Source: Acidimicrobiia bacterium (GTDB lineage: Bacteria > Acidobacteriota > Vicinamibacteria > Vicinamibacterales > UBA2999). From it: DNA of 64,000 nucleotides. The notes under the pieces were generated by a model, which had not been told where the DNA came from, made no database searches, and saw only the letters and a list, made by a program, of their open reading frames with translations. The translations under genes were made by a program, and so were the position numbers. The stretch is taken from positions 36,742 through 100,741 of the forward strand of contig JAYQOO010000002.1 of assembly GCA_038144855.1 (NCBI GenBank). The letters are read 5' to 3'. How positions within the stretch are numbered: position 1 is the first letter of the stretch; the number at the start of each line of letters is the position of its first letter. Positions 810-10,287 of the stretch are shown here, piece by piece.

Positions 810-2612
810 ATGAAATCCAAACTGCTCCTTGCCGTCGTGATGCTGTCTGCCGTGGTCTGCAGCGCCGCAACAGCGGCGGCACAGGCCCTCGCGCCGATTC
901 GCTACACGCTGCGCTTCCCCGCGCCGCACACCCACTATGTGGAAGTGGAGGCGGTGATTCCGTCAGCCGGCCGTGCCGAGGTCGAGGTCTACATGGCCAC
1001 GTGGACGCCCGGGTCGTACCTGATCCGCGAATACGAGCGCCAGGTTGAAGCCGTCACCGCGACGGCCGCCAACAAGCCGACCGCCGTCGTGAAGTCCACC
1101 AAGAACCGCTGGAAGATCACGACCGGCGGCGCCGCCAACGTCACGCTCCGCTACAAGGTCTACAGCCGCGAGATGACGGTTCGCAACAACTGGGTCGAGA
1201 CGGCGTTTGCCATGCTGAATGGCGCTCCGACCTTCATCACCCTGGTTGAGCGTGCCGCGCGCCCGCACGACGTGCGCGTCGAGCTGCCGGCGGCCTGGAA
1301 GCGCGTCGAAACCGCGCTCGAGCCGATCAGCGGATCGGCGAACACCTTCCGCGCCGCCGACTTCGACACGCTGGTCGACAGCCCGATCATCATTGGCAAC
1401 CCGGTCACCCGGGAATTCACCGTCGACAACAAGCGGCATACCGTCGTCTTCGAGGGCGACACCGCGATGATCGACGCGGACAAGGTGGTTGCCGACGTGC
1501 AGAAGATCGTGCTCGCCGGCAAGGCGGTGATGGGCTCGCTGCCGTACCCGCACTATCACTTCATGACGATGGTGACGGAGTCCAGCGGCGCGCTCGAGCA
1601 CAAGAACAGCTACCTCGGCATGACCAACCGCTTCGCCACGCGCACGCGTAGCGCGTATCTCGACTTCATCGGTACGCTGGCGCACGAGTACTTCCACAAC
1701 TGGAACGTGAAGCGTCTGCGGCCCGTCGAGCTGGGGCCGTTCGACTACGAGAACGAGAACTACGTGAAGACGCTGTGGGTGGCGGAAGGCTTTACCGACT
1801 ACTACTCCGACATCCTGAACAAGCGTGCCGGCATCCAGACGCGGGACGAGTACCTCAATGCGCTTTCCAACCAGATCGAGCAGGTGCAGACGATCCCCGG
1901 CCGCCTGGTGACGCCGGTGGCGATGGCGTCGTTCGACACCTGGATCAAGCAGTACCGTCCCGACGAGAACCTCGCCAACATGAGCGTCAACTATTACCCG
2001 AAGGGCGCGGTGATCGCGTTCCTGCTCGACGCCAAGATCCGCAAGGCTACCAACGGCGCGCGCTCGCTCGACACCGGCATGCAGTGGGCGATGCAACGCT
2101 ACTCGGGAGAGAAGGGCTATACGCCCGAGCAGTTCTATGCAGTGATGAGCGAAGCGGCCGGCAGCGATCTCAAGGGATGGTTCGCGACCACGGCGGAATC
2201 CACCAACGAACTCGACTACACCGAAGCGCTCGAGTACTACGGCCTGCGGTTCCGTCCCGTCGATTCGCGCACCGCGGCCCCGTATATCGGCGGCGGCACC
2301 CGCAATGACGCCGGCCGCCTGGTGATCACGTCGGTGCGTCGTGGCACCCCCGGTATTGACGCCGGCCTCAACGTCGACGACGAAATTATCGCGGTCGACG
2401 ACGTCCGCGTGCGCGCCGACGGTTGGGCGGCGCGGCTTGGCCAGTACAAGCCGGGCGACAAGGTCTCGCTCACCATCGCTCGGCGCGACCGGATGATGAA
2501 GCTCGACGTGACGCTTGGCGCCGATCCAGGTCGTCCGTGGCGACTCGAGGCATTGCCGAACGCCACGCCCGAGCAGGCCGCCCGGCTGGCCGCGCTCATC
2601 GAAGGCAAATAG
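810..2612 (+). CDS. secreted M61 family (glycyl aminopeptidase-type) metallopeptidase with C-terminal PDZ domain
   Basis: Signal peptide MKSKLLLAVVMLSAVVCSAATAAA. Zinc motif LAHEYFHNWNVKRLRP is typical of M61. A PDZ-like segment GIDAGLNVDDEIIAVDDVRV lies near the C-terminus. Confidence 0.85.
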   Translation: MKSKLLLAVVMLSAVVCSAATAAAQALAPIRYTLRFPAPHTHYVEVEAVIPSAGRAEVEVYMATWTPGSYLIREYERQVEAVTATAANKPTAVVKSTKNRWKITTGGAANVTLRYKVYSREMTVRNNWVETAFAMLNGAPTFITLVERAARPHDVRVELPAAWKRVETALEPISGSANTFRAADFDTLVDSPIIIGNPVTREFTVDNKRHTVVFEGDTAMIDADKVVADVQKIVLAGKAVMGSLPYPHYHFMTMVTESSGALEHKNSYLGMTNRFATRTRSAYLDFIGTLAHEYFHNWNVKRLRPVELGPFDYENENYVKTLWVAEGFTDYYSDILNKRAGIQTRDEYLNALSNQIEQVQTIPGRLVTPVAMASFDTWIKQYRPDENLANMSVNYYPKGAVIAFLLDAKIRKATNGARSLDTGMQWAMQRYSGEKGYTPEQFYAVMSEAAGSDLKGWFATTAESTNELDYTEALEYYGLRFRPVDSRTAAPYIGGGTRNDAGRLVITSVRRGTPGIDAGLNVDDEIIAVDDVRVRADGWAARLGQYKPGDKVSLTIARRDRMMKLDVTLGADPGRPWRLEALPNATPEQAARLAALIEGK

Positions 2613-2731
2613 TTACAAACGCGGCTTCGTAGCAATTCCGGGGCAATTTCGCCAGAAGGTGCGAGTTGCCCCGCGCCTCCGCGCTCGTCCCCCCAACCTT
2701 TCACTCCTCACTTCCGTCTATTCGTGTGCTT

Positions 2732-5326
2732 ATGCGTTTCTTGAATGGCGGCCTTATTGCGGCCGCATGTGTACTGCTGGTTCCCACGACATCCTTTGGC
2801 AACGAGCGTTCGGCGAACGAGCGTCGAGCTGCCTCCCTGACAAAGGCGGCGGTGGAGGCGGTGGCCGTTCCGGCGACCAGCCCGATCGTGCTCGACGGCA
2901 AGCTCCATGAGGAGATCTGGCAGCAGGCGCCGGCAATCGCCGAGTTCGTGCAGCGCGATCCCGCCGAAGGTCAATCCCCCACGATGACGACCGAGGCGCG
3001 CGTCGCCTACGACGACAACGCCCTCTACGTGGCCGGGCGCGCGCACGACACCGATGCGTCGAGGATCGTCGGCATCCTCACCAGGCGCGACCAGCGTTCG
3101 CCCTCCGACTGGATTCGTATCGTCGTCGACTCGTACTTCGACAAGCGCACGGCGTATGAATTCGGTGTCAATCCGGTAGGCGTCAAGACCGATCGCTACT
3201 ACTTCAACGACGGACAGAGCGATGAAAGTTGGGATGCGGTGTGGGACGTTGAAGTTGCGCGCGATGCCACCGGCTGGAGCGCGGAGTTCCGCATTCCGTT
3301 TTCGCAGTTGCGTTTCAACAGCGCCGGCACCGGCGGCCCGGTGGGCTTTGCGGTGACGCGGGAAATTGGCCGGTTGGCGGAAACGTCGACGTGGCCACTG
3401 CTGTCGCGCAACGCCAACGGCTTTGTCTCCCAGTTCGGTGAACTACGCGGCCTGAAGATGTCGGGCACGCCGAAGAAGTTCGAGCTGCTGCCGTACACCG
3501 TCGGTGACTTCCGCACGCAGCCGGACGACGCCGGCAATCCGCTGAGCAACCCGCGCGATCCCGGTGCGGCCATTGGCCTCGACATGAAGTACGCGTTGAC
3601 GCCGGGCCTGACGCTGACGGCGACCGTGAACCCCGACTTCGGTCAGGTCGAAGCCGATCCGGCGGTGGTCAACCTCGACGCGTTCGAGACGTTCTTCCAG
3701 GAACGCCGTCCGTTCTTCGTCGAGGGTTCAGGCACGTTCCGCTTCAACATGGACTGCAACGACGGCAACTGCACCGGCCTGTTCTACTCCCGCCGGATCG
3801 GCCGCGCGCCGCAGGGTTCCGCCAACACCTCTGGCGATGAGTATTCCAAGCAGCCGGACTCGGCCACGATCATCGGCGCCGGCAAGCTGACCGGCCGCGT
3901 GGCCGGCTTCTCGATCGGCGCGCTGACCGCGGTCACCGCGCGCGAAGACGCTGAGATCGCTGCGGCTGGCTCGCTGTCGCGGCGCGACTACACCGTGGAG
4001 CCGCTGACCGGGTACACGGTCCTCCGGGCCCGCAAGGAATTCAGCAACCAGTCGTCGCTTGGCTTCATGACCACGGCGACCAACCGCCAAAACGATCCGG
4101 CCACGACGTTCCTCGCCAGCCACGCCTACGCCGGCGGCGTTGACTACGACTGGCGCCTCTCGCCGAAATACAACATCAGCGGCTACTGGGCGACGAGTCA
4201 CATCCAGGGTTCGACCGAGGCGATCACCCGGTTGCAGGAGAACACCGTCCACAGCTTCCAGCGGTCGGACGCCGACTACGTCGAGACCGACCGGTCCGCG
4301 ACGACGATGCGAGGCCATGCCGGCTCGGTGTCGATCGGCAAAATCGCCGGCGAGACGATTCGTTTCAATTCGTTCTTTGGCTACAAGTCGCCCGGGTTCG
4401 ACTCGAACGACCTCGGCTTCATGCGCCGGGCCGACGAGCGGCAGCAGTCGAACTGGATCCAGTGGCGCAACTTCCGGCCAGGCAAGTACGTCCGCACCCG
4501 CAACTTCAACATCAATCAGTACGCGGGCTGGAACTTCGGGGGCGATCGCACCTACTCGGGCGGCAACATCAACTCGCACTGGACGTTCACCAACTACTAC
4601 AGCATTGGCGGCGGCATGAATGTCGACGCAGCGCCGTTCCGCGATCGCGTCACCCGCGGCGGTCCCGGCGTGCTGGGCAATCGCACCAGGTTCAACACCT
4701 GGTACTACGCCAACACCGACAATCGAAAGTCGGTGTCGTTCTTCTTCAACGGCAATCACTGGGCCGACACCAAGGACAGCTCCCGGCACGGCTATGGTCC
4801 CGGTTTCAACTGGCGCCCGACCTCGTCGATGTCGTTGAACATGGGCTTCTGGTACAACACCAACAAGGATGATTCGCAGTGGGTAACCAACGAGACCCGC
4901 GCGGACGGCAGCAAGCGGTACGTGTTCGGACGCATCGACCAGAAGACGCTGTCGATCAACACCCGCTTCAACTACACCATGACGCCAAACCTGTCGTTGC
5001 AGGTGTACGCCGAGCCGTTCGTGTCGGCGGGTTCGTACTCGAACTACAAGGAGCTGGTTGACGGCCGCGCCGAGCGCTACGAGGACCGCTACCAGCCCTA
5101 CGCCTACGGCGGCAACGCCAACTTCAACATCCGCTCGTTCCGCACCACCAACGTGCTGCGCTGGGAATATCGCCCGGGATCGCAGTTGTTCCTGGTGTGG
5201 CAGCAGGGACGGTCGGACTACCTGGATCACGGCGATTTCAAGATCGGCCGCGATTTCAGCGGCGTGTTCGACGCGCCGTCCAGGAACGTCTTCCTGATCA
5301 AGTTCAGCTACTGGCTGAATATGTAA
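2732..5326 (+). CDS. secreted DUF5916-type protein with an N-terminal CBM9-like domain (probable outer-membrane beta-barrel)
   Basis: From ATG 2732 the sequence MRFLNGGLIAAACVLLVPTTSFG looks like a signal peptide. The N-terminus IVLDGKLHEEIWQQAPAIAEFVQRDPAEGQSPTMTTEARVAYDDNALYV..DSYFDKRTAYEFGVNPVGVKTD matches the CBM9/DUF5916 pattern as I remember it. The Y/W/N/F-rich C-terminal half ends in FLIKFSYWLNM. The track start at 2666 is probably an extension. Confidence 0.6.
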   Translation: MRFLNGGLIAAACVLLVPTTSFGNERSANERRAASLTKAAVEAVAVPATSPIVLDGKLHEEIWQQAPAIAEFVQRDPAEGQSPTMTTEARVAYDDNALYVAGRAHDTDASRIVGILTRRDQRSPSDWIRIVVDSYFDKRTAYEFGVNPVGVKTDRYYFNDGQSDESWDAVWDVEVARDATGWSAEFRIPFSQLRFNSAGTGGPVGFAVTREIGRLAETSTWPLLSRNANGFVSQFGELRGLKMSGTPKKFELLPYTVGDFRTQPDDAGNPLSNPRDPGAAIGLDMKYALTPGLTLTATVNPDFGQVEADPAVVNLDAFETFFQERRPFFVEGSGTFRFNMDCNDGNCTGLFYSRRIGRAPQGSANTSGDEYSKQPDSATIIGAGKLTGRVAGFSIGALTAVTAREDAEIAAAGSLSRRDYTVEPLTGYTVLRARKEFSNQSSLGFMTTATNRQNDPATTFLASHAYAGGVDYDWRLSPKYNISGYWATSHIQGSTEAITRLQENTVHSFQRSDADYVETDRSATTMRGHAGSVSIGKIAGETIRFNSFFGYKSPGFDSNDLGFMRRADERQQSNWIQWRNFRPGKYVRTRNFNINQYAGWNFGGDRTYSGGNINSHWTFTNYYSIGGGMNVDAAPFRDRVTRGGPGVLGNRTRFNTWYYANTDNRKSVSFFFNGNHWADTKDSSRHGYGPGFNWRPTSSMSLNMGFWYNTNKDDSQWVTNETRADGSKRYVFGRIDQKTLSINTRFNYTMTPNLSLQVYAEPFVSAGSYSNYKELVDGRAERYEDRYQPYAYGGNANFNIRSFRTTNVLRWEYRPGSQLFLVWQQGRSDYLDHGDFKIGRDFSGVFDAPSRNVFLIKFSYWLNM

Positions 5327-5336
5327 GAATCGCGGG

Positions 5337-5591
5337 GTGACCCTCCGCGACAACATTCGCGACTTCTTCCACGGCGCGGCTTACGGGGCATACGAACGTG
5401 AGCTGCGCCTGAAGGCCGCCGAGCTGAACGATCTCTTCCTGTTGCTCTGCTACATGGAGATCGTGGGGCTCCCCAACCCGGCCACGCTCTACCTGCTCGA
5501 CATCTACCCCTATCTCCTCGAGCAGTTTCATCTCTGGCACAAGCGGATGGGGATGGATCGCTCCCCGCTTGGCAACCTGCCCTGCTGCTGA
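5337..5591 (+). CDS. small protein ending in Cys-Cys-stop ('cory-CC-star'-like family, function unknown)
   Basis: An 84-aa ORF with high GC3 and a GTG start. It ends ..SPLGNLPCC-TGA. The stop lies 2 nt before the GTG of the ArsA-family ATPase gene. The family name and its ArsA linkage are recalled from NCBI family naming and were not verified here. Confidence 0.55.
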   Translation: MTLRDNIRDFFHGAAYGAYERELRLKAAELNDLFLLLCYMEIVGLPNPATLYLLDIYPYLLEQFHLWHKRMGMDRSPLGNLPCC

Positions 5592-5593
5592 CC

Positions 5594-6526
5594 GTGCGCG
5601 CGCTGATCGAAAAGAAGGTGCTGTTCTTCGGCGGCAAGGGCGGGGTCGGCAAGACCACGTCCGCGTCGGCGATGGCGCTTGCGGCCAGCAAGGCCGGCAA
5701 GCGCGTCCTGCTCGTCTCGACCGACCCCGCGCATTCCACGTCCGATATTTTCGAGCGGCCGATCGGTCCGGAACCGGTCGAGTTGCTGCCGAACCTGCAC
5801 GGTCTCGAGATCGACGGCGAGTTCGAGTCGAGGCGCTATGTCGCCGAGGTGAAGGAACGCATCACCGGGTTGTTCGGCCACAGCATTCTCAAGGAAGCCT
5901 CGCGGCAGATCGATCTCGCCGCCAGCATGCCGGGCGCGGAAGAGATGGCGCTGTTCGACAAGATCGGCGCGCTGGTCCGCGACGGCGATCACACCTATGA
6001 CCTGGTGATCTTCGACACCGCCCCGACTGGCCACACGCTCCGGCTGATCCGCATGCCGGAGTTGATGGAAGCGTGGATCAGGGCGCTGTCCCGGTCGAGG
6101 CAGGCGATGCTCGGCGTCGAGCAGGATGACAAGACCGACCCGGTGATGATCTCCCTCAAGGACCGGCTCGAGCACCTGCGCGAGTTCCGCGCCCGGCTGC
6201 TCAGCCCGCGGGTCTGCGCGTTCGTGCTGGTGCTGGTCGCCGAGCGCCTGCCGATCGAAGAGACCGCTCGCGCGATCGAGCAGCTGCAGGAGGCCGGTGT
6301 GACCATTGGCGGCCTGGTGGTCAACCGCGTGCTGCCCGAGACGAGCCCTGATCCGTTCCTGCGGGCGCGCCACGATCAGGAGTCGATCTACCTCGCCGAG
6401 ATCGCGCGGCGGTTTTCGGCACACTCGAAGGTGCGCGTGCCGCAGTTACCATCGGATGTCCACGGCATCACAACACTCGAGCATCTCGCTCGGCTCTTGG
6501 TTCCAGAAAAGGCGCATTCATCATGA
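5594..6526 (+). CDS. ArsA/GET3-family P-loop ATPase (single-domain)
   Basis: Deviant Walker A FFGGKGGVGKTTSASAMA, STDPAHS, and the signature DTAPTGHTLRLIRMPE. Confidence 0.85.
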   Translation: MRALIEKKVLFFGGKGGVGKTTSASAMALAASKAGKRVLLVSTDPAHSTSDIFERPIGPEPVELLPNLHGLEIDGEFESRRYVAEVKERITGLFGHSILKEASRQIDLAASMPGAEEMALFDKIGALVRDGDHTYDLVIFDTAPTGHTLRLIRMPELMEAWIRALSRSRQAMLGVEQDDKTDPVMISLKDRLEHLREFRARLLSPRVCAFVLVLVAERLPIEETARAIEQLQEAGVTIGGLVVNRVLPETSPDPFLRARHDQESIYLAEIARRFSAHSKVRVPQLPSDVHGITTLEHLARLLVPEKAHSS

Positions 6527-7041
6527 CGATCACCAAGCCTCAGGCTTCAGAGTTTGCAGGGTTTTATGCCGGCTACATCGGCAAGGTGCCAGACAGCGGA
6601 CCCGTGGCGCAGTTGACGTCGCAGATCGAGGAACTCGAACGGCTCCGGGCGCTGCCCGACGACAAGGGCAACTACGCCTACGCCGACGGCAAGTGGACCG
6701 TGAAGGAGGTGATCGGCCACCTTGCCGACGCCGAGCGCGTGTTCAGCTACCGCCTGACGCGGATTGCCCGCGGCGACCAGACGCCGCTGGCGGGGTTCGA
6801 CGAGAACGCCTGGGCCCTGACCGCGCCTCACGGCAGGCGCAAGATGTCTTCGGTTGTCGATGAAATGATCGCCATCCGCCGCTCGACGCTGGCGCTGATC
6901 GACTCCCTGGACGAGGCCAGCATTGCCAACAGCGGCGTGGCCAACAACAACCCCGTCACCGCGCGTGCGATCTGCTGGATCCTGGCCGGGCATAGCCGGC
7001 ACCACCTCGACATCCTGGTGGAGCGTTACGGGGTAAAGTAA
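6523..7041 (+). CDS. DinB-family (DinB_2/YfiT-like) metal-dependent four-helix-bundle protein
   Basis: A His triad pattern VIGHLADAERVF .. ILAGHSRHHLDIL in a length of about 170 aa. The start overlaps the ArsA-like stop (ATGA at 6523-6526). Confidence 0.75.
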   Translation: MTITKPQASEFAGFYAGYIGKVPDSGPVAQLTSQIEELERLRALPDDKGNYAYADGKWTVKEVIGHLADAERVFSYRLTRIARGDQTPLAGFDENAWALTAPHGRRKMSSVVDEMIAIRRSTLALIDSLDEASIANSGVANNNPVTARAICWILAGHSRHHLDILVERYGVK

Positions 7042-7049
7042 AAAGACCA

Positions 7050-8504
7050 ATGAAATTCGCCCCCGAGTACGTCACCCACGTACTCAACGAAAACTTCGAA
7101 GACGCCAAGGAGCTGCTGTTGTCGCCGCTCATGGCGATCAACTACGCGCACCTGGTCATGCTGGCCGAACAGGGAATCATCTCGAAGGAAGACGCGCGAT
7201 CGCTGCGCGACGCCCTCGACGGGATCTCGCTCGACCAGGTCCGCCAGGTGCTGTACGACGGCACCTACGAAGACCTGTTCTTCTACATCGAGCGGCTGAT
7301 CGACCAGGCGTGCGGCGTCGACGTGGCGGGGCGGCTGCACACGGCGCGCAGCCGCAACGACCTTGCGATGACGATGTATCGCATCCGGCAGCGTGAGTTC
7401 ATTGCCGGCCTGGCGGAGGCGGCGCTTGAGCTTAGGGAAGCCCTGATCGCCCTTGCCGAACGCCACAAGCAATCGATCTACGGCGCGCACACGCATACCC
7501 AGCCGGCCCAGCCGACGACGATTGCGCACTACCTGCTGGCGATCATCGAGCAGCTCGAACGCGACATGACGCGGCTTGGCGCCGCGTTCGAATCGACCAA
7601 TCGCAATCCCCTGGGCGCCTGCGCCATTACCGGCACCGGATTCCCGATCGATCGCAATCGCACCAGCGAGCTGCTTGGCTTCAACGGGCCGACCTGCAAC
7701 ACCTACGGCAGCATCGCGACCGTCGACTACCTGCTCGAGAGCGTCTCGGCCACCAGCATCATGATCGTCGGTCTCGGCCGCGTCGTGCAGGACCTGCTGC
7801 TGTGGTGCACGATGGAGTTTGGCTACCTGCGCTTGAGCGACGGCTTCGTGCAGGGCAGCAGCATCATGCCGCAGAAGCGCAACCCGGTGGCCCTCGAGCA
7901 CTCGCGGGCGATCGGCAGCAAGGCCGTCGGCCAGGCCCAGGCGATCACCACCACCGTTCACAACACGCCGTTTGGCGACATCAACGACACGGAAGACGAC
8001 CTGCAGCCGCTGGTGGCTTCGATGTTCCGTGATGCGACGCGCATGGTGACGCTGGTGGCGGCGGCGATGAAGCTGGCGGACTTCAACGTCGAGAAGCTGG
8101 CCGAGCGCGCCGGTGAACACGGCACGACGCTGACCGAACTGGCCGACACCCTGGTGCGCGATCACGGCCTGCCGTTCCGCAATGCGCACGCGATCGCGGC
8201 GCTGTTGCTGAAGGCCCGGACCGAAGATCCCAACGTCGCGCTGTCCGGGGCGCTGTCGAAAGCCTCGTCGGCGATTCTTGGGCGGGCCCTCGAATACAGC
8301 GAAGGCGACCTCCAGAAGATCATGAGCCCCGAACACTTCGTGCGCGTCCGCACGACTTTCGGCGGTCCATCTCCTTCGGAAACCGCGCGAGCGATCACCG
8401 AGTCCGCGCGGTTGCTGCAATCGGATCGCGCCAGCTGGCAGGCAAGGCGTCAACAATTGCAGCGCGCCGAAGCGGATCTGAAGGCGAGAGCCGCAGCCCT
8501 ATGA
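7050..8504 (+). CDS. argininosuccinate lyase family (fumarate-lyase superfamily) protein; atypical N-terminus
   Basis: LHTARSRNDLAMT, HTHTQPAQPTT and the superfamily signature GSSIMPQKRNP are present. The usual ArgH N-terminal LWGGRF segment is missing, so assignment to true ArgH function is uncertain. Confidence 0.7.
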   Translation: MKFAPEYVTHVLNENFEDAKELLLSPLMAINYAHLVMLAEQGIISKEDARSLRDALDGISLDQVRQVLYDGTYEDLFFYIERLIDQACGVDVAGRLHTARSRNDLAMTMYRIRQREFIAGLAEAALELREALIALAERHKQSIYGAHTHTQPAQPTTIAHYLLAIIEQLERDMTRLGAAFESTNRNPLGACAITGTGFPIDRNRTSELLGFNGPTCNTYGSIATVDYLLESVSATSIMIVGLGRVVQDLLLWCTMEFGYLRLSDGFVQGSSIMPQKRNPVALEHSRAIGSKAVGQAQAITTTVHNTPFGDINDTEDDLQPLVASMFRDATRMVTLVAAAMKLADFNVEKLAERAGEHGTTLTELADTLVRDHGLPFRNAHAIAALLLKARTEDPNVALSGALSKASSAILGRALEYSEGDLQKIMSPEHFVRVRTTFGGPSPSETARAITESARLLQSDRASWQARRQQLQRAEADLKARAAAL

Positions 8505-8596
8505 GCAACGTGCGTACCACCTACGTCAAGGTGATTGCCGTGTGGGCGATCACGCTGGCCGCGTTGTACGCATTCCAGGTGTATTTCTCGCGCTGA
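8501..8596 (+). CDS. 31-aa single-pass membrane mini-protein (unannotated, below the ORF-track cutoff)
   Basis: MSNVRTTYVKVIAVWAITLAALYAFQVYFSR. 26 of 30 codons end in G or C. The ATG overlaps the lyase stop (ATGA). Its TGA overlaps the symporter ATG (TGATG at 8594-8598). Confidence 0.4.
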   Translation: MSNVRTTYVKVIAVWAITLAALYAFQVYFSR

Positions 8597-10287
8597 TGTC
8601 CGCCATCGACTGGTCGATCATCGGGCTCTACCTGGCGTGGATCGTGTGGGACGGCATCCGCATGAGCCGCGACACCGGCAAGATCGAAGGCTATTTCCTG
8701 GCCAGCAAGAGCCTGCCGTGGTGGGCGGTCGGCCTGTCGGTCATGGCGACGCAGTTGTCGGCGATTACCATGACCAGCAGCACCGGCCAGGGGTATGCCG
8801 ACGGCATCGGCCTGCTGCAGCAGTACTATGCGCTGCCGATCGCGATGATCATCATCTCGGTCACGTTCGTCCCGTTTTTCCGCAACGCCAATATCTACAC
8901 CGCCTACGAGTATCTCGAACGCCGCTTCGACGCCCGCGTGCGCTCGATGACGGCGCTGCTGTTTCTGTTCTCGAGAGGCATGAGCACGGGCGTCGTGATC
9001 TCGGCGCCGGCGGTGGTGTTGTCGGTGCTGATCGGCGCCGATATCAGCACCATCTGCGTGCTGCTGGCCGTGCCGACGGCCATTTACACGATGTATGGCG
9101 GCGTCCAGGCGGTGGCCTGGACCGACGTCAAGCAGATGTACTTGATCGTGTTCGGTCTCGTCGCGGCGACCGTGACGCTCGTCACCGGCCTGCCGGACGC
9201 GATCAGCGTCAACGATGCGCTGACGCTTGCCGGTACTGCCGGCAAGTTGCAGGCGTTCAACTTCTCGACCGACCCGTCGGTCCGGTTCACGTTCTGGACC
9301 GGCACGCTGGGCGCGCTGTTCCTGTTCCTGTCGTACTTCGGCACCGACCAGAGCCAGGTGCAACGCTACTTGACGGCGAAGTCCGACGCCGAGGCGCAGA
9401 CGTCGCTGTTCATGAGCGCCTACTGGAAGATTCCGCTGCAGGCGCTGGTGATGGTCATTGGCGTGCTGATGTTCGTGTTCTACCTGTTCACGCCACCGCC
9501 CATGCTGTTCAACTCCGTGCACGAGCAGCGCGTGCGCGCCAGCGCGCGGGCGGGCGAGTATGCCGGTCTCGAACAGCGATTCAGTGTGGCCGTCGATGCC
9601 CGGTCCGCTGCGGCGCAGCAGCTGGCGCAGGCGGAGCGCGCCGGCGACTCGACGGCGATCGCCGCCCAGCAGGCCGCGTTTCGTGACAGCGAGGCTCAGG
9701 TCAAGGGCGTGCGCACCGAAGCAATTGCACTCGTCAAGGACGTCACCGGCGACCGTTCCTACAACGACGTCAACTACGTGTTTCCGACCTACATCGTGAC
9801 GCAGATGCCGGTCGGACTGATCGGCCTGTTGATGGCGGCGATCTTTGCCGCCGCGATGTCGAGCATCGCCGGTGAGCTGTCGGCGCTGTCGACGTCGACG
9901 GTGATGGACTTCTATCGCCGCTGGGTCAGAAGCGATGCCGATGACGCGCACCTGTTGCGCGTGTCGCGATTTGCGATGTTGTTCTGGGCACTGTTTGCCT
10001 CGATTGTCGCGATCTGGGCGGCGGAGCTGGGATCACTGATCGAGGTGGTGAATCGGTTCGGGTCGTTCTTTTACGGCTCGATTCTCGGCGTGTTCCTGCT
10101 GGCGATTGGCTGGAGCCGTGCCAATGCGATCGGCGCGCTGGTTGGCCTGGTCGCGGGGATGAGCGTGGTGGCCTGCTTCACGCTGTATACCAACGTCGCC
10201 TTCCTCTGGCACAACCTGATCGGCGCCGTTGTCGTTTTCGTCGTCGGCATGATCGTCAGCGAAGTCACCGGGCCGCGAAAGGCGTAA
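8596..10287 (+). CDS. sodium:solute symporter (SSS) family transporter
   Basis: A polytopic membrane protein. The N-terminus MSAIDWSIIGLYLAWIVWDGI is typical of the SSS family. GYFLASKSLPWWAVGLSVMATQLSAITMTS matches the SSS signature region. The track start at 8542 is an out-of-context extension. Confidence 0.85.
   Translation: MSAIDWSIIGLYLAWIVWDGIRMSRDTGKIEGYFLASKSLPWWAVGLSVMATQLSAITMTSSTGQGYADGIGLLQQYYALPIAMIIISVTFVPFFRNANIYTAYEYLERRFDARVRSMTALLFLFSRGMSTGVVISAPAVVLSVLIGADISTICVLLAVPTAIYTMYGGVQAVAWTDVKQMYLIVFGLVAATVTLVTGLPDAISVNDALTLAGTAGKLQAFNFSTDPSVRFTFWTGTLGALFLFLSYFGTDQSQVQRYLTAKSDAEAQTSLFMSAYWKIPLQALVMVIGVLMFVFYLFTPPPMLFNSVHEQRVRASARAGEYAGLEQRFSVAVDARSAAAQQLAQAERAGDSTAIAAQQAAFRDSEAQVKGVRTEAIALVKDVTGDRSYNDVNYVFPTYIVTQMPVGLIGLLMAAIFAAAMSSIAGELSALSTSTVMDFYRRWVRSDADDAHLLRVSRFAMLFWALFASIVAIWAAELGSLIEVVNRFGSFFYGSILGVFLLAIGWSRANAIGALVGLVAGMSVVACFTLYTNVAFLWHNLIGAVVVFVVGMIVSEVTGPRKA

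Follow-up and report, generated by a model that had tools for sequence, protein, structure and literature searches.

The cory-CC-star gene, its product and the partner ATPase

We analyzed a stretch of 64,000 nucleotides (referred to here in its entirety as the window) from contig JAYQOO010000002.1 of assembly GCA_038144855.1, which derives from a bacterium of the acidobacterial order Vicinamibacterales. The window carries a compact trio of genes on the plus strand, encoding an 84-amino-acid (84-aa) mini-protein that ends in Cys-Cys, a single-domain ATPase of the ArsA/Get3 family, and a DinB-fold protein. Through this analysis, the mini-protein was recognized as a member of the cory-CC-star family, a subfamily of DUF7990, whose genes sit beside those of ArsA-like ATPases in many lineages and, in several of these, beside a gene for a transporter of the CstA family. 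We propose that the mini-protein and the ATPase act together as an accessory of such a transporter, although at this particular locus the transporter link would have to operate at a distance. The features of the trio are as follows.

5337..5591, plus strand: cory-CC-star (DUF7990) gene, 84 aa, GTG start (NF041419 match)
5466..5480, plus strand: codons for Gly44-Leu-Pro-Asn-Pro48, the predicted hairpin turn and the most conserved core of the family (alignment and AlphaFold2 [AF2] model)
5529..5540, plus strand: codons for the HxWH motif (His65-Leu-Trp67-His68) at the end of helix 2 (alignment)
5580..5591, plus strand: Pro82-Cys83-Cys84-stop, CCC TGC TGC TGA (direct reading)
5594..6526, plus strand: single-domain ArsA/Get3-family ATPase gene, 310 aa, GTG start (TIGR00345, PF02374)
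5630..5656, plus strand: deviant Walker A motif (P-loop) GGKGGVGKT, ATPase residues 13 to 21 (direct reading; kept in all aligned partner ATPases)
6523..7041, plus strand: DinB_2 (YfiT-like) gene, 172 aa, with an intact His triad (PF12867; alignment with 1rxq)

The initial annotation, made from the letters alone, had described a small open reading frame (ORF) with a high G+C content at third codon positions (GC3), ending in CC-TGA, a 2-nt gap before the ATPase gene and an ATGA overlap after it, and every detail holds on re-reading. The 3′ end of the ORF reads GGC AAC CTG CCC TGC TGC TGA (..SPLGNLPCC-stop), its GC3 is 0.87, the 2-nt spacer (CC) separates its TGA from the ATPase GTG at 5594, and the DinB_2 ATG overlaps the ATPase stop at 6523-6526. 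The name cory-CC-star, which had been offered there, was borne out by a hidden Markov model (HMM) search, in which the protein scored 88.8 bits (E = 1.7e-25) against the curated cutoff of 80 of NF041419 (CC_star_Cory). A search of a 5.8-billion-protein collection returned 321 relatives of the small protein, all tagged PF25952, which a database look-up gives as DUF7990. A literature search on the cory-CC-star/DUF7990 family found no relevant paper. Some cory-CC-star proteins go under the name “DNA helicase” in UniRef and nr, and some members without the Cys-Cys end are called “F0F1-type ATP synthase membrane subunit a” in JGI; both names are probably annotation errors.

That the small ORF is a genuine gene, as had been supposed, is supported by its pattern of substitution. 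Compared with 80 related loci, it shows synonymous (pS) and nonsynonymous (pN) differences of 0.55 and 0.10, a ratio of 0.18, and on metagenome contigs that encode an identical ATPase, independent gene calling gives the same 84-aa gene, carrying PF25952. Across the 80 loci, the codons for the two terminal Cys residues alternate between TGC and TGT, and the stop is TGA, TAG or TAA; the synonymous Cys switches and the use of all three stops indicate that the Cys-Cys-stop end is selected at the protein level. Judged by these sequences, the small ORF is a translated cory-CC-star member of DUF7990 under purifying selection. Read-through of the TGA as selenocysteine after the Cys-Cys pair was ruled out, as TAG or TAA stands in its place in 17 of the 80 loci; a role as the precursor of a ribosomally synthesized and posttranslationally modified peptide was likewise rejected, given that conservation is high over the entire sequence and that there is no variable core. 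No second copies were found in the window. In our judgment, the identities assigned to the proteins of the locus are very probably correct.

An AF2 model of the mini-protein, built on an alignment of 67 sequences reaching down to 33% identity, places a helix at residues 3 to 43, a turn, a second helix at residues 48 to 70, and an unstructured tail (residues 71 to 84) that holds both Cys residues; the mean predicted local distance difference test score (pLDDT) was 85. The mini-protein is predicted, in other words, to be a two-helix hairpin with a hydrophobic tip and a 14-residue flexible tail ending in Cys-Cys-COOH. In the same alignment, Asn47 and Pro48 at the turn are invariant and Gly44 and Pro46 are at least 90% conserved; the other invariant residues include Asp32, Phe34, Tyr52, Pro58, Phe64, His65, Trp67, His68, Arg70, Gly72, Pro77, Cys83 and Cys84. 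The hydrophobic maximum (Kyte-Doolittle, 19-residue window) is 1.47 here and 0.8 to 2.0 in relatives, and acidic residues (Glu41 and Asp/Glu55) are conserved inside the hydrophobic stretch that forms the predicted tip. Neither a profile search of the PDB with the CC-star alignment (no match) nor a Foldseek search of the PDB with the model (no match below E = 6) returned a structural relative.

The terminal Cys-Cys pair, on whose conservation the initial annotation had staked its reading, is essentially invariant in the subfamily, being present in 118 of 120 relatives in one set and 119 of 119 in another, with both exceptions frameshifted or read through. It goes together with the HxWH motif: both features are present in 296 sequences and both are missing in 135, and another 26 sequences are mixed, with many damaged or frameshifted ones among them (these are raw counts, in which kinship is ignored). 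Compared with other members of NF041419, the window protein is divergent, scoring 88.8 bits against 103 to 133 for the proteobacterial, actinobacterial and Gemmatimonadota-type members above the cutoff, and it has Pro before the Cys-Cys pair where those have Arg, Ser or Gly.

As for the ATPase, its earlier placement as a single-domain ArsA/GET3 protein agrees with matches to both TIGR00345 (GET3_arsA_TRC40; 262 bits against a cutoff of 135) and PF02374 (260 bits). Among solved structures, those of archaeal Get3 (3zq6 and 3ug6) are closest, aligning over the full length, and the Get3-type switch motifs GGKGGVGKT, DPAHS and DTAPTGHT are all present. The protein fails the ArsA equivalog TIGR04291 (149 bits against a cutoff of 650) and, at 310 aa, compares with a two-halved protein of approximately 580 aa. 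It contains a single Cys, which is not conserved among partner ATPases or orthologues; in the alignment, neither the metalloid-binding Cys triad of ArsA nor the zinc-binding CxxC of Get3 was found, the archaeal Get3 “CEFC” aligning with “PDPF.” A segment of approximately 20 to 28 residues (after ...RSRQAM), present in all other CC-star-partner ATPases, is missing from the ATPase of the window clade; it corresponds to the region of the Get3 helical insert, which is shortened in comparison with Get3 too. To our knowledge, the Mycobacterium tuberculosis proteins BagA and BagB (Rv3679/Rv3680) are bacterial Get3/ArsA-like ATPases without a role in arsenic resistance. Similarity to these is weak, and the window ATPase lies on a different branch; it reaches 79 and 73 bits on the BagA and BagB models (cutoffs of 400 and 521), in both cases over the N-terminal region only.

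Recurrence and co-duplication of the pair

The best related genome loci, 87 to 95% identical to the window, come from Vicinamibacterales, and in 80 of 80 loci from this order the small gene is followed by the ATPase gene. Since synteny extends across the whole region, this amounts to conservation within one order and not to independent recurrence. More distant evidence came from a metagenome scan with a narrower CC-star alignment, which returned one marine gammaproteobacterial clade only (80 contigs); its small protein and ATPase are approximately 40% and 36% identical, respectively, to those of the window, and wherever the contig reaches far enough, the ATPase gene follows the small gene. In this clade (L081, L099, L114 and L157, at ca. 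6300 to 9000), genes for an SNF-type transporter, RatA and RnfH lie on one side of the pair, and on the other side are genes for a small H-x-H membrane protein and a large ORF that resembles a TonB-dependent receptor by its N-terminal sequence alone.

Altogether, a Cys-Cys-stop end lies close upstream of an ATPase P-loop in 166 loci from at least six lineages (at 33 to 75 nt in the loci listed individually), and RefSeq holds the pair “cory-CC-star protein / ArsA family ATPase” in Pseudochrobactrum, Paracoccus and Cytobacillus (plasmid records), Pseudomonas, Halomonas and Luteimonas. In many lineages, the ATPase start lies inside the sequence N TGC TGC TGA, such that the ATPase begins M-L-L; ATG, GTG or TTG occupies this −10 position in 100 of the 166 loci, and in the window clade the ATPase has its GTG 2 nt past the stop. 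Close packing over so many lineages makes tight coupling a trait of the family, and the two genes are probably translationally coupled. Both the tight coupling and the recurrence beside ArsA-like genes had been put forward in the initial annotation, and both are upheld, the former by the 166 loci and the latter across phyla. We also considered whether the Cys-Cys pair is kept merely through overlap with the ATPase start codon; this was ruled out, because the window clade lacks the overlap and nevertheless keeps the pair through synonymous changes. At one locus (L169, 5001-9841), an IcmF-like fused protein of 1110 aa, made up of a B12-binding domain, a MeaB GTPase and a methylmalonyl-CoA-mutase domain, is encoded between the CC-star gene and its ATPase gene.

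The family extends well beyond the proteins that end in Cys-Cys. A profile search with CC-star returned 187 clusters (50% identity) at E values up to 0.001 (exhaustive), and when the most distant relatives served as the seed, more than 7,800 clusters at 90% identity were obtained, all PF25952; the named sources of distant DUF7990 proteins are Chloroflexota, Desulfobacterales, Synergistetes and Aminicenantia. Among 115 distant DUF7990 proteins, 108 lack the Cys-Cys end, and these score below the NF041419 cutoff. Their tails are acidic or His-rich (...DEHDYHLHGL) or read ...QYDF(CC), and the alternative conserved tails include ...REREFTDEHDYHLHGL, ...DITELEELHLIEM and ...AEKAGQYDF(CC/D/G), a pattern which suggests that a constant hairpin bears a functional C-terminal end that varies among these proteins. 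DUF7990 proteins without Cys-Cys still adjoin ArsA-like ATPases (L180 to L183), with CstA near the pair in two of these four contexts (L180 and L183) and not in the other two (L181 and L182). Given that these proteins keep the same kind of ATPase as partner, the Cys-Cys tail does not define the ATPase partnership; in terms of these alignments, it is a feature of a subfamily of DUF7990.

Two of these contexts provide the strongest evidence available on how the two proteins associate. In L180 (an Anaerolineales metagenome-assembled genome), the gene order is CstA, a CstY-like ORF, two DUF7990 genes, two ArsA genes, ferredoxin and pyruvate:ferredoxin oxidoreductase; in L183, CstA and a CstY-like ORF are followed by two fusion genes, one for a double DUF7990 protein (180 aa) and one for a double ArsA (690 aa). 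From this co-duplication and co-fusion of the hairpin and the ATPase, we infer that they form a 1:1 physical complex. An AF2 model of a natural tandem-hairpin protein, built on a 4-sequence alignment, was uninformative (mean pLDDT of 48). The ferredoxin and pyruvate:ferredoxin oxidoreductase subunit genes of L180 (6755-8294) would fit a pyruvate-related role for this type of CstA.

The third member of the trio has a much narrower distribution. Its product matches PF12867 (DinB_2) with 71 bits against a cutoff of 24.8, and the sole PDB relative is Bacillus subtilis YfiT (1rxq), with whose histidines the positions of His66 and His157/His160-His161 align; the earlier DinB call is confirmed on both counts. 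Although the fold and the His triad are thus common to this protein and the YfiT/BstA-type thiol S-transferases, its score falls far under the cutoff of the YfiT equivalog NF009807 (42.9 bits against 160). Of the 80 Vicinamibacterales loci, 73 have the DinB gene linked to the pair: in 71 it lies downstream of the ATPase gene, and in 2 with a rearranged order (L046 and L048) it lies immediately upstream of the small gene. No DinB gene was found next to the pair in the 80 marine gammaproteobacterial loci or in the other non-Vicinamibacterales contexts examined. The linkage is limited to the window's own clade, Vicinamibacterales, so that of the two kinds of neighbor proposed for comparison across phyla, the ArsA-like gene recurs but the DinB gene does not.

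CstA linkage and the Cys-Cys tail

Outside the two large clades, 14 contexts were inspected one by one, and CstA was linked to the pair in 10 of them. The order CstA, CC-star, ArsA, usually with stop/start overlaps, was found in eight (Brachybacterium, Pseudomonas, L170, Halomonas, Zhihengliuella, Pseudochrobactrum, Paracoccus and Cytobacillus), and in Gemmatimonadales the order is CC-star, ArsA, CstA. The pair-linked CstA belongs to a short, divergent subfamily (559 to 638 aa; 355 to 500 bits on PF02554, and 155 to 242 bits on the E. coli CstA equivalog, whose cutoff is 1188). CstA divides into two classes with different companions: short CstA (L161, L163, L165, L173 and L175; 559 to 590 aa) goes with DUF7990 and an ArsA-like ATPase, whereas long CstA (L168 and L176 to L179; 691 to 701 aa and ca. 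850 bits on PF02554 in the two that were scanned) goes with DUF466, usually without an NTPase. A tblastn search with five CstA/BtsT queries covered the 64-kb window together with the 80 Vicinamibacterales loci (with 6 kb on either side) and the 80 loci of the marine gammaproteobacterial clade (with 5 kb on either side), and it detected no CstA homologue.

Castillo and Saier (2010; PMC2963123) described 26 clusters of cstA with an arsA homologue, 24 of which included a protein of approximately 90 aa, CstX, and some of which included CstY, a protein of approximately 210 aa with a single transmembrane segment (TMS) that was reported only in archaea. They showed that the three proteins had coevolved and proposed that the ATPase energizes CstA, with CstX, which they scored as a single TMS, as the linker (PMC2963123). 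We found CstY-like ORFs of approximately 210 aa with one N-terminal transmembrane segment in L180 (3318-3965, minus strand) and L183 (3323-3952, minus strand), divergently oriented and situated between CstA and DUF7990; the two are 37% identical to each other (E = 4e-44) and have no Pfam or NCBIfam match. Size, position, the occurrence of paralogue pairs and the CstY-like neighbor all agree, and we infer that CstX is probably DUF7990. The cstA-cstX-arsA operons and the window have in common a single-domain ArsA homologue of approximately 300 to 340 aa, a small protein of approximately 90 aa, and no ars genes; they differ in that the window and the 80 related loci lack cstA and have a DinB_2 gene instead, and the paper is silent on a Cys-Cys end. 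The DUF7990-ATPase core was already known, as a named family for which a function has been proposed in print, and what the window adds is a cstA-unlinked, DinB_2-coupled variant with a shortened ATPase insert, found throughout an acidobacterial order. The initial annotation had called this a module of unknown function; a published proposal, that of ATPase-energized CstA transport (PMC2963123), does exist.

The tail itself has a counterpart in E. coli, where the last residues are ...MRCC in YjiX and ...ARCC in YbdD. Both proteins belong to PF04328/DUF466 (“CstA-like transporter-associated (seleno)protein”), and their genes directly follow btsT and cstA, respectively; yjiX is followed in turn by yjiA, which encodes a P-loop GTPase (COG0523, SIMIBI class). 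YbdD is needed for CstA-dependent pyruvate uptake (PMC5847655), DUF466 genes are cofit with cstA-like genes (bioRxiv 10.1101/072470), and in Campylobacter, the DUF466 versions end in Lys-Cys-selenocysteine (Lys-Cys-Sec; bioRxiv 10.1101/2022.07.06.499078). We rejected homology between CC-star and DUF466 in favor of convergence, since only the last 8 residues of the CC-star and YjiX profiles align (hhalign probability, 6.8%); CC-star likewise has no Pfam match to PF04328. The BtsT-YjiX-YjiA and CstA-YbdD systems share with the DUF7990 loci a small Cys-Cys-COOH protein, whose gene in the case of DUF466 comes immediately after that of a CstA-family transporter, and, in the yji locus, a SIMIBI NTPase; the latter, however, is a COG0523 GTPase, whereas that of the window is ArsA-like, and DUF466 goes with long CstA (ca. 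700 aa), mostly without an NTPase neighbor. No account of this parallel between the CC-star and DUF466 tails was found in the literature examined. That two unrelated CstA-associated mini-proteins carry the same terminal dithiol argues that the function of the tail lies on the transporter side, or in a chemistry that the two share, rather than with the ATPase. A bolder extension, which we regard as a long shot, is that a Cys-Cys-COOH (or Cys-Sec-COOH) end evolved twice in unrelated small proteins that serve CstA, each of which can be paired with a SIMIBI NTPase; the tail would then serve as a movable switch, of a redox or metal kind, for gating the carrier or bridging the NTPase dimer, and the Vicinamibacterales module would have become independent of CstA, with DinB writing or erasing the tail. 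If true, secondary transport would here be coupled to a nucleotide switch and to thiol chemistry in a manner not recognized before.

A putative transporter accessory and the genes around it

The explanation that we favor is as follows. One hairpin would bind one ATPase domain, such that the ATPase dimer carries two hairpins, and the pair would be the cytoplasmic accessory of a membrane transporter, normally short-form CstA, with the hairpin (“CstX”) as the adaptor that joins the nucleotide cycle of the ATPase to the transporter. Working models for such an adaptor are provided by ArsA with ArsB and by Get3 with its bound Get1 helical hairpin; compared with Get3/TRC40 and Get1/WRB, the ATPase is of the same family but lacks the CxxC zinc site and has a shortened insert, and the hairpin is a free 84-aa protein and not part of a membrane receptor. 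The Cys-Cys tail may be a redox- or metal-active end acting on the transporter side and not on the ATPase, because DUF466 has converged on Arg-Cys-Cys-COOH and because DUF7990 proteins without Cys-Cys are still paired with the ATPase. In this Vicinamibacterales genome, the pair would no longer be physically linked to cstA and would have acquired a YfiT-like DinB metalloenzyme. Its transporter would most likely be encoded at another locus and be acted on in trans, and the DinB enzyme would service the thiol tail or a thiol-reactive cargo.

We give this explanation as a whole about an even chance of being right, and somewhat less than that to the transporter-accessory mechanism at this particular locus. 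Several points weigh against it. For the window clade, the transporter link is an extrapolation, as there is no CstA at its loci; moreover, CstX was said never to occur without CstA (PMC2963123), which these CstA-free loci contradict. The equation of CstX with DUF7990 is built on size, position and the CstY match and not on sequence identity, and the short CstA itself falls far under the cutoff of the E. coli CstA equivalog. The ATPase of the window clade, lacking the segment of approximately 25 residues, may work differently from its relatives. The servicing role assigned to DinB is the weakest step of the explanation.

A first alternative, that of the initial annotation, is a trio for handling thiols or metalloids, in which the tail dithiol binds a soft metal or metalloid, or is itself a thiol substrate, and passes it to the ATPase as ArsD does to ArsA, with DinB carrying out thiol transfer. 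The ATPase does belong to the ArsA/Get3 family, the tail Cys-Cys pair and the invariant His65 and His68 make up a plausible set of ligands, and DinB keeps the His triad of YfiT and stays linked to the pair after rearrangement (L046 and L048). ArsD, the arsenic chaperone of ArsA, has vicinal Cys pairs, one of them C-terminal, and so offers a parallel to the tail. Nevertheless, we consider this reading unlikely and find it weakly supported, given that the ATPase has one nonconserved Cys, none of the ArsA ligands, no CxxC and a score far from that of the ArsA equivalog; that no arsB, acr3, arsR or arsD was present among the genes called ca. 8 to 10 kb on either side of the trio; that the contexts in other lineages are those of carbon metabolism; that DinB is absent from every one of the contexts examined outside Vicinamibacterales; and that DUF7990 proteins without Cys-Cys pair with the same ATPases. 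The ArsD-ArsA-ArsB pump, whose ATPase makes a secondary carrier ATP coupled (PMC2963123), has in common with the window an ArsA-family ATPase and a small vicinal-Cys protein; in the window, however, the ATPase is single domain, without the metalloid Cys residues and without ars genes, and the small protein gave no Pfam match.

A second alternative, to which we assign a similarly small probability, is that of a private Get3-like targeting factor, in which the ATPase shields the hydrophobic tip of the mini-protein and delivers it, as a client and not an adaptor, to the membrane or to a partner. The closest solved structures are indeed those of archaeal Get3 tail-anchor factors, the strict 1:1 stoichiometry would suit a dedicated client, and the hydrophobic maximum lies 20 to 30 residues from the C terminus, in a loosely tail-anchor-like position; CstX, moreover, was scored as a single TMS (PMC2963123). 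In the AF2 model, however, the hydrophobic stretch is interrupted at the invariant GxPNP turn, where it folds back to form a hairpin, and the conserved acidic residues Glu41 and Asp/Glu55 lie within that stretch at the tip. The Get3 CxxC is missing, the lid/insert segment is shortened in the window clade, and a chaperone with one client leaves both the CstA linkage and the conserved tail unexplained.

Least probable, in our view, is a bridging site formed in trans, at which two hairpins bring four Cys and four His residues to the two-fold axis of the dimer in place of the Zn(CxxC)2 site of Get3 or a NifH/Nbp35-type cluster, making the dimer metal or redox gated; the ATPase lacks a CxxC exactly where archaeal Get3 has one, HxWH and Cys-Cys co-occur, the tail is flexible in the AF2 model and other DUF7990 branches have His/Asp-rich tails (such as the ...DEHDYHLHGL noted above), but the proposal is structural reasoning alone, and DUF466, which has the same tail and usually no NTPase neighbor, points the tail toward CstA.

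For the window itself, the outcome is mostly clarifying: the module there can be placed in a named family, and its DinB partner is specific to the lineage. The combination of DUF7990 and an ArsA-like ATPase is very widespread, as judged from the number of clusters, and stands beside CstA transporters that are important in pyruvate and peptide scavenging. To what was known of it, the present comparison contributes the duplication and fusion of hairpin and ATPase in step, the tracking of the Cys-Cys tail with HxWH, the occurrence of the same tail on an unrelated CstA accessory of E. coli, and the finding that some lineages run the pair without an adjacent cstA. These points, together with the split between short and long CstA, may be of use to specialists, and what had been an unknown module becomes open to experiment in Pseudomonas, Halomonas, Paracoccus and other tractable hosts.

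The genes that surround the trio are as follows.

2666..5326, plus strand: CBM9 and DUF5916 neighbor gene, ending 10 nt before the CC-star start (Pfam)
7050-8504, plus strand: argininosuccinate-lyase-like lyase gene (family matches)
8542-10287, plus strand: sodium:solute symporter (SSF) gene (family matches)
Window 810-2612, 2666-5326 and 7050-10287, and L184 14751-16715: peptidase M61, CBM9-DUF5916, lyase, SSF symporter and peptidase M49 genes around the trio

This neighborhood hints at peptide or amino-acid scavenging. The CBM9-DUF5916 gene is syntenic in most Vicinamibacterales loci and, outside the clade, is not part of the module; here it is probably cotranscribed with the trio. From the DUF5916 gene through to the symporter gene, successive gaps are 10, 2, −4, 8 and 37 nt. 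A scan for promoter-like sites found none, and the terminator-like hairpins were all intragenic, with none between genes, so the limits of the operon are drawn from spacing alone. Given the short gaps of 8 and 37 nt, the lyase and symporter genes may share the operon of the trio, and it is possible that in this genome the operon is longer than the trio and reaches both. In most related genomes, the DinB gene is parted from the lyase gene by an insert of approximately 2.5 kb with an ORF on the opposite strand (for example, L003 at ca. 7722-10230, minus strand); the window lacks this insert, as do L001, L009, L011, L022, L029, L037 and L052. The inserted ORF has a signal-like N terminus and a GSNNW motif and was read by eye as a penicillin-acylase-like Ntn-hydrolase.

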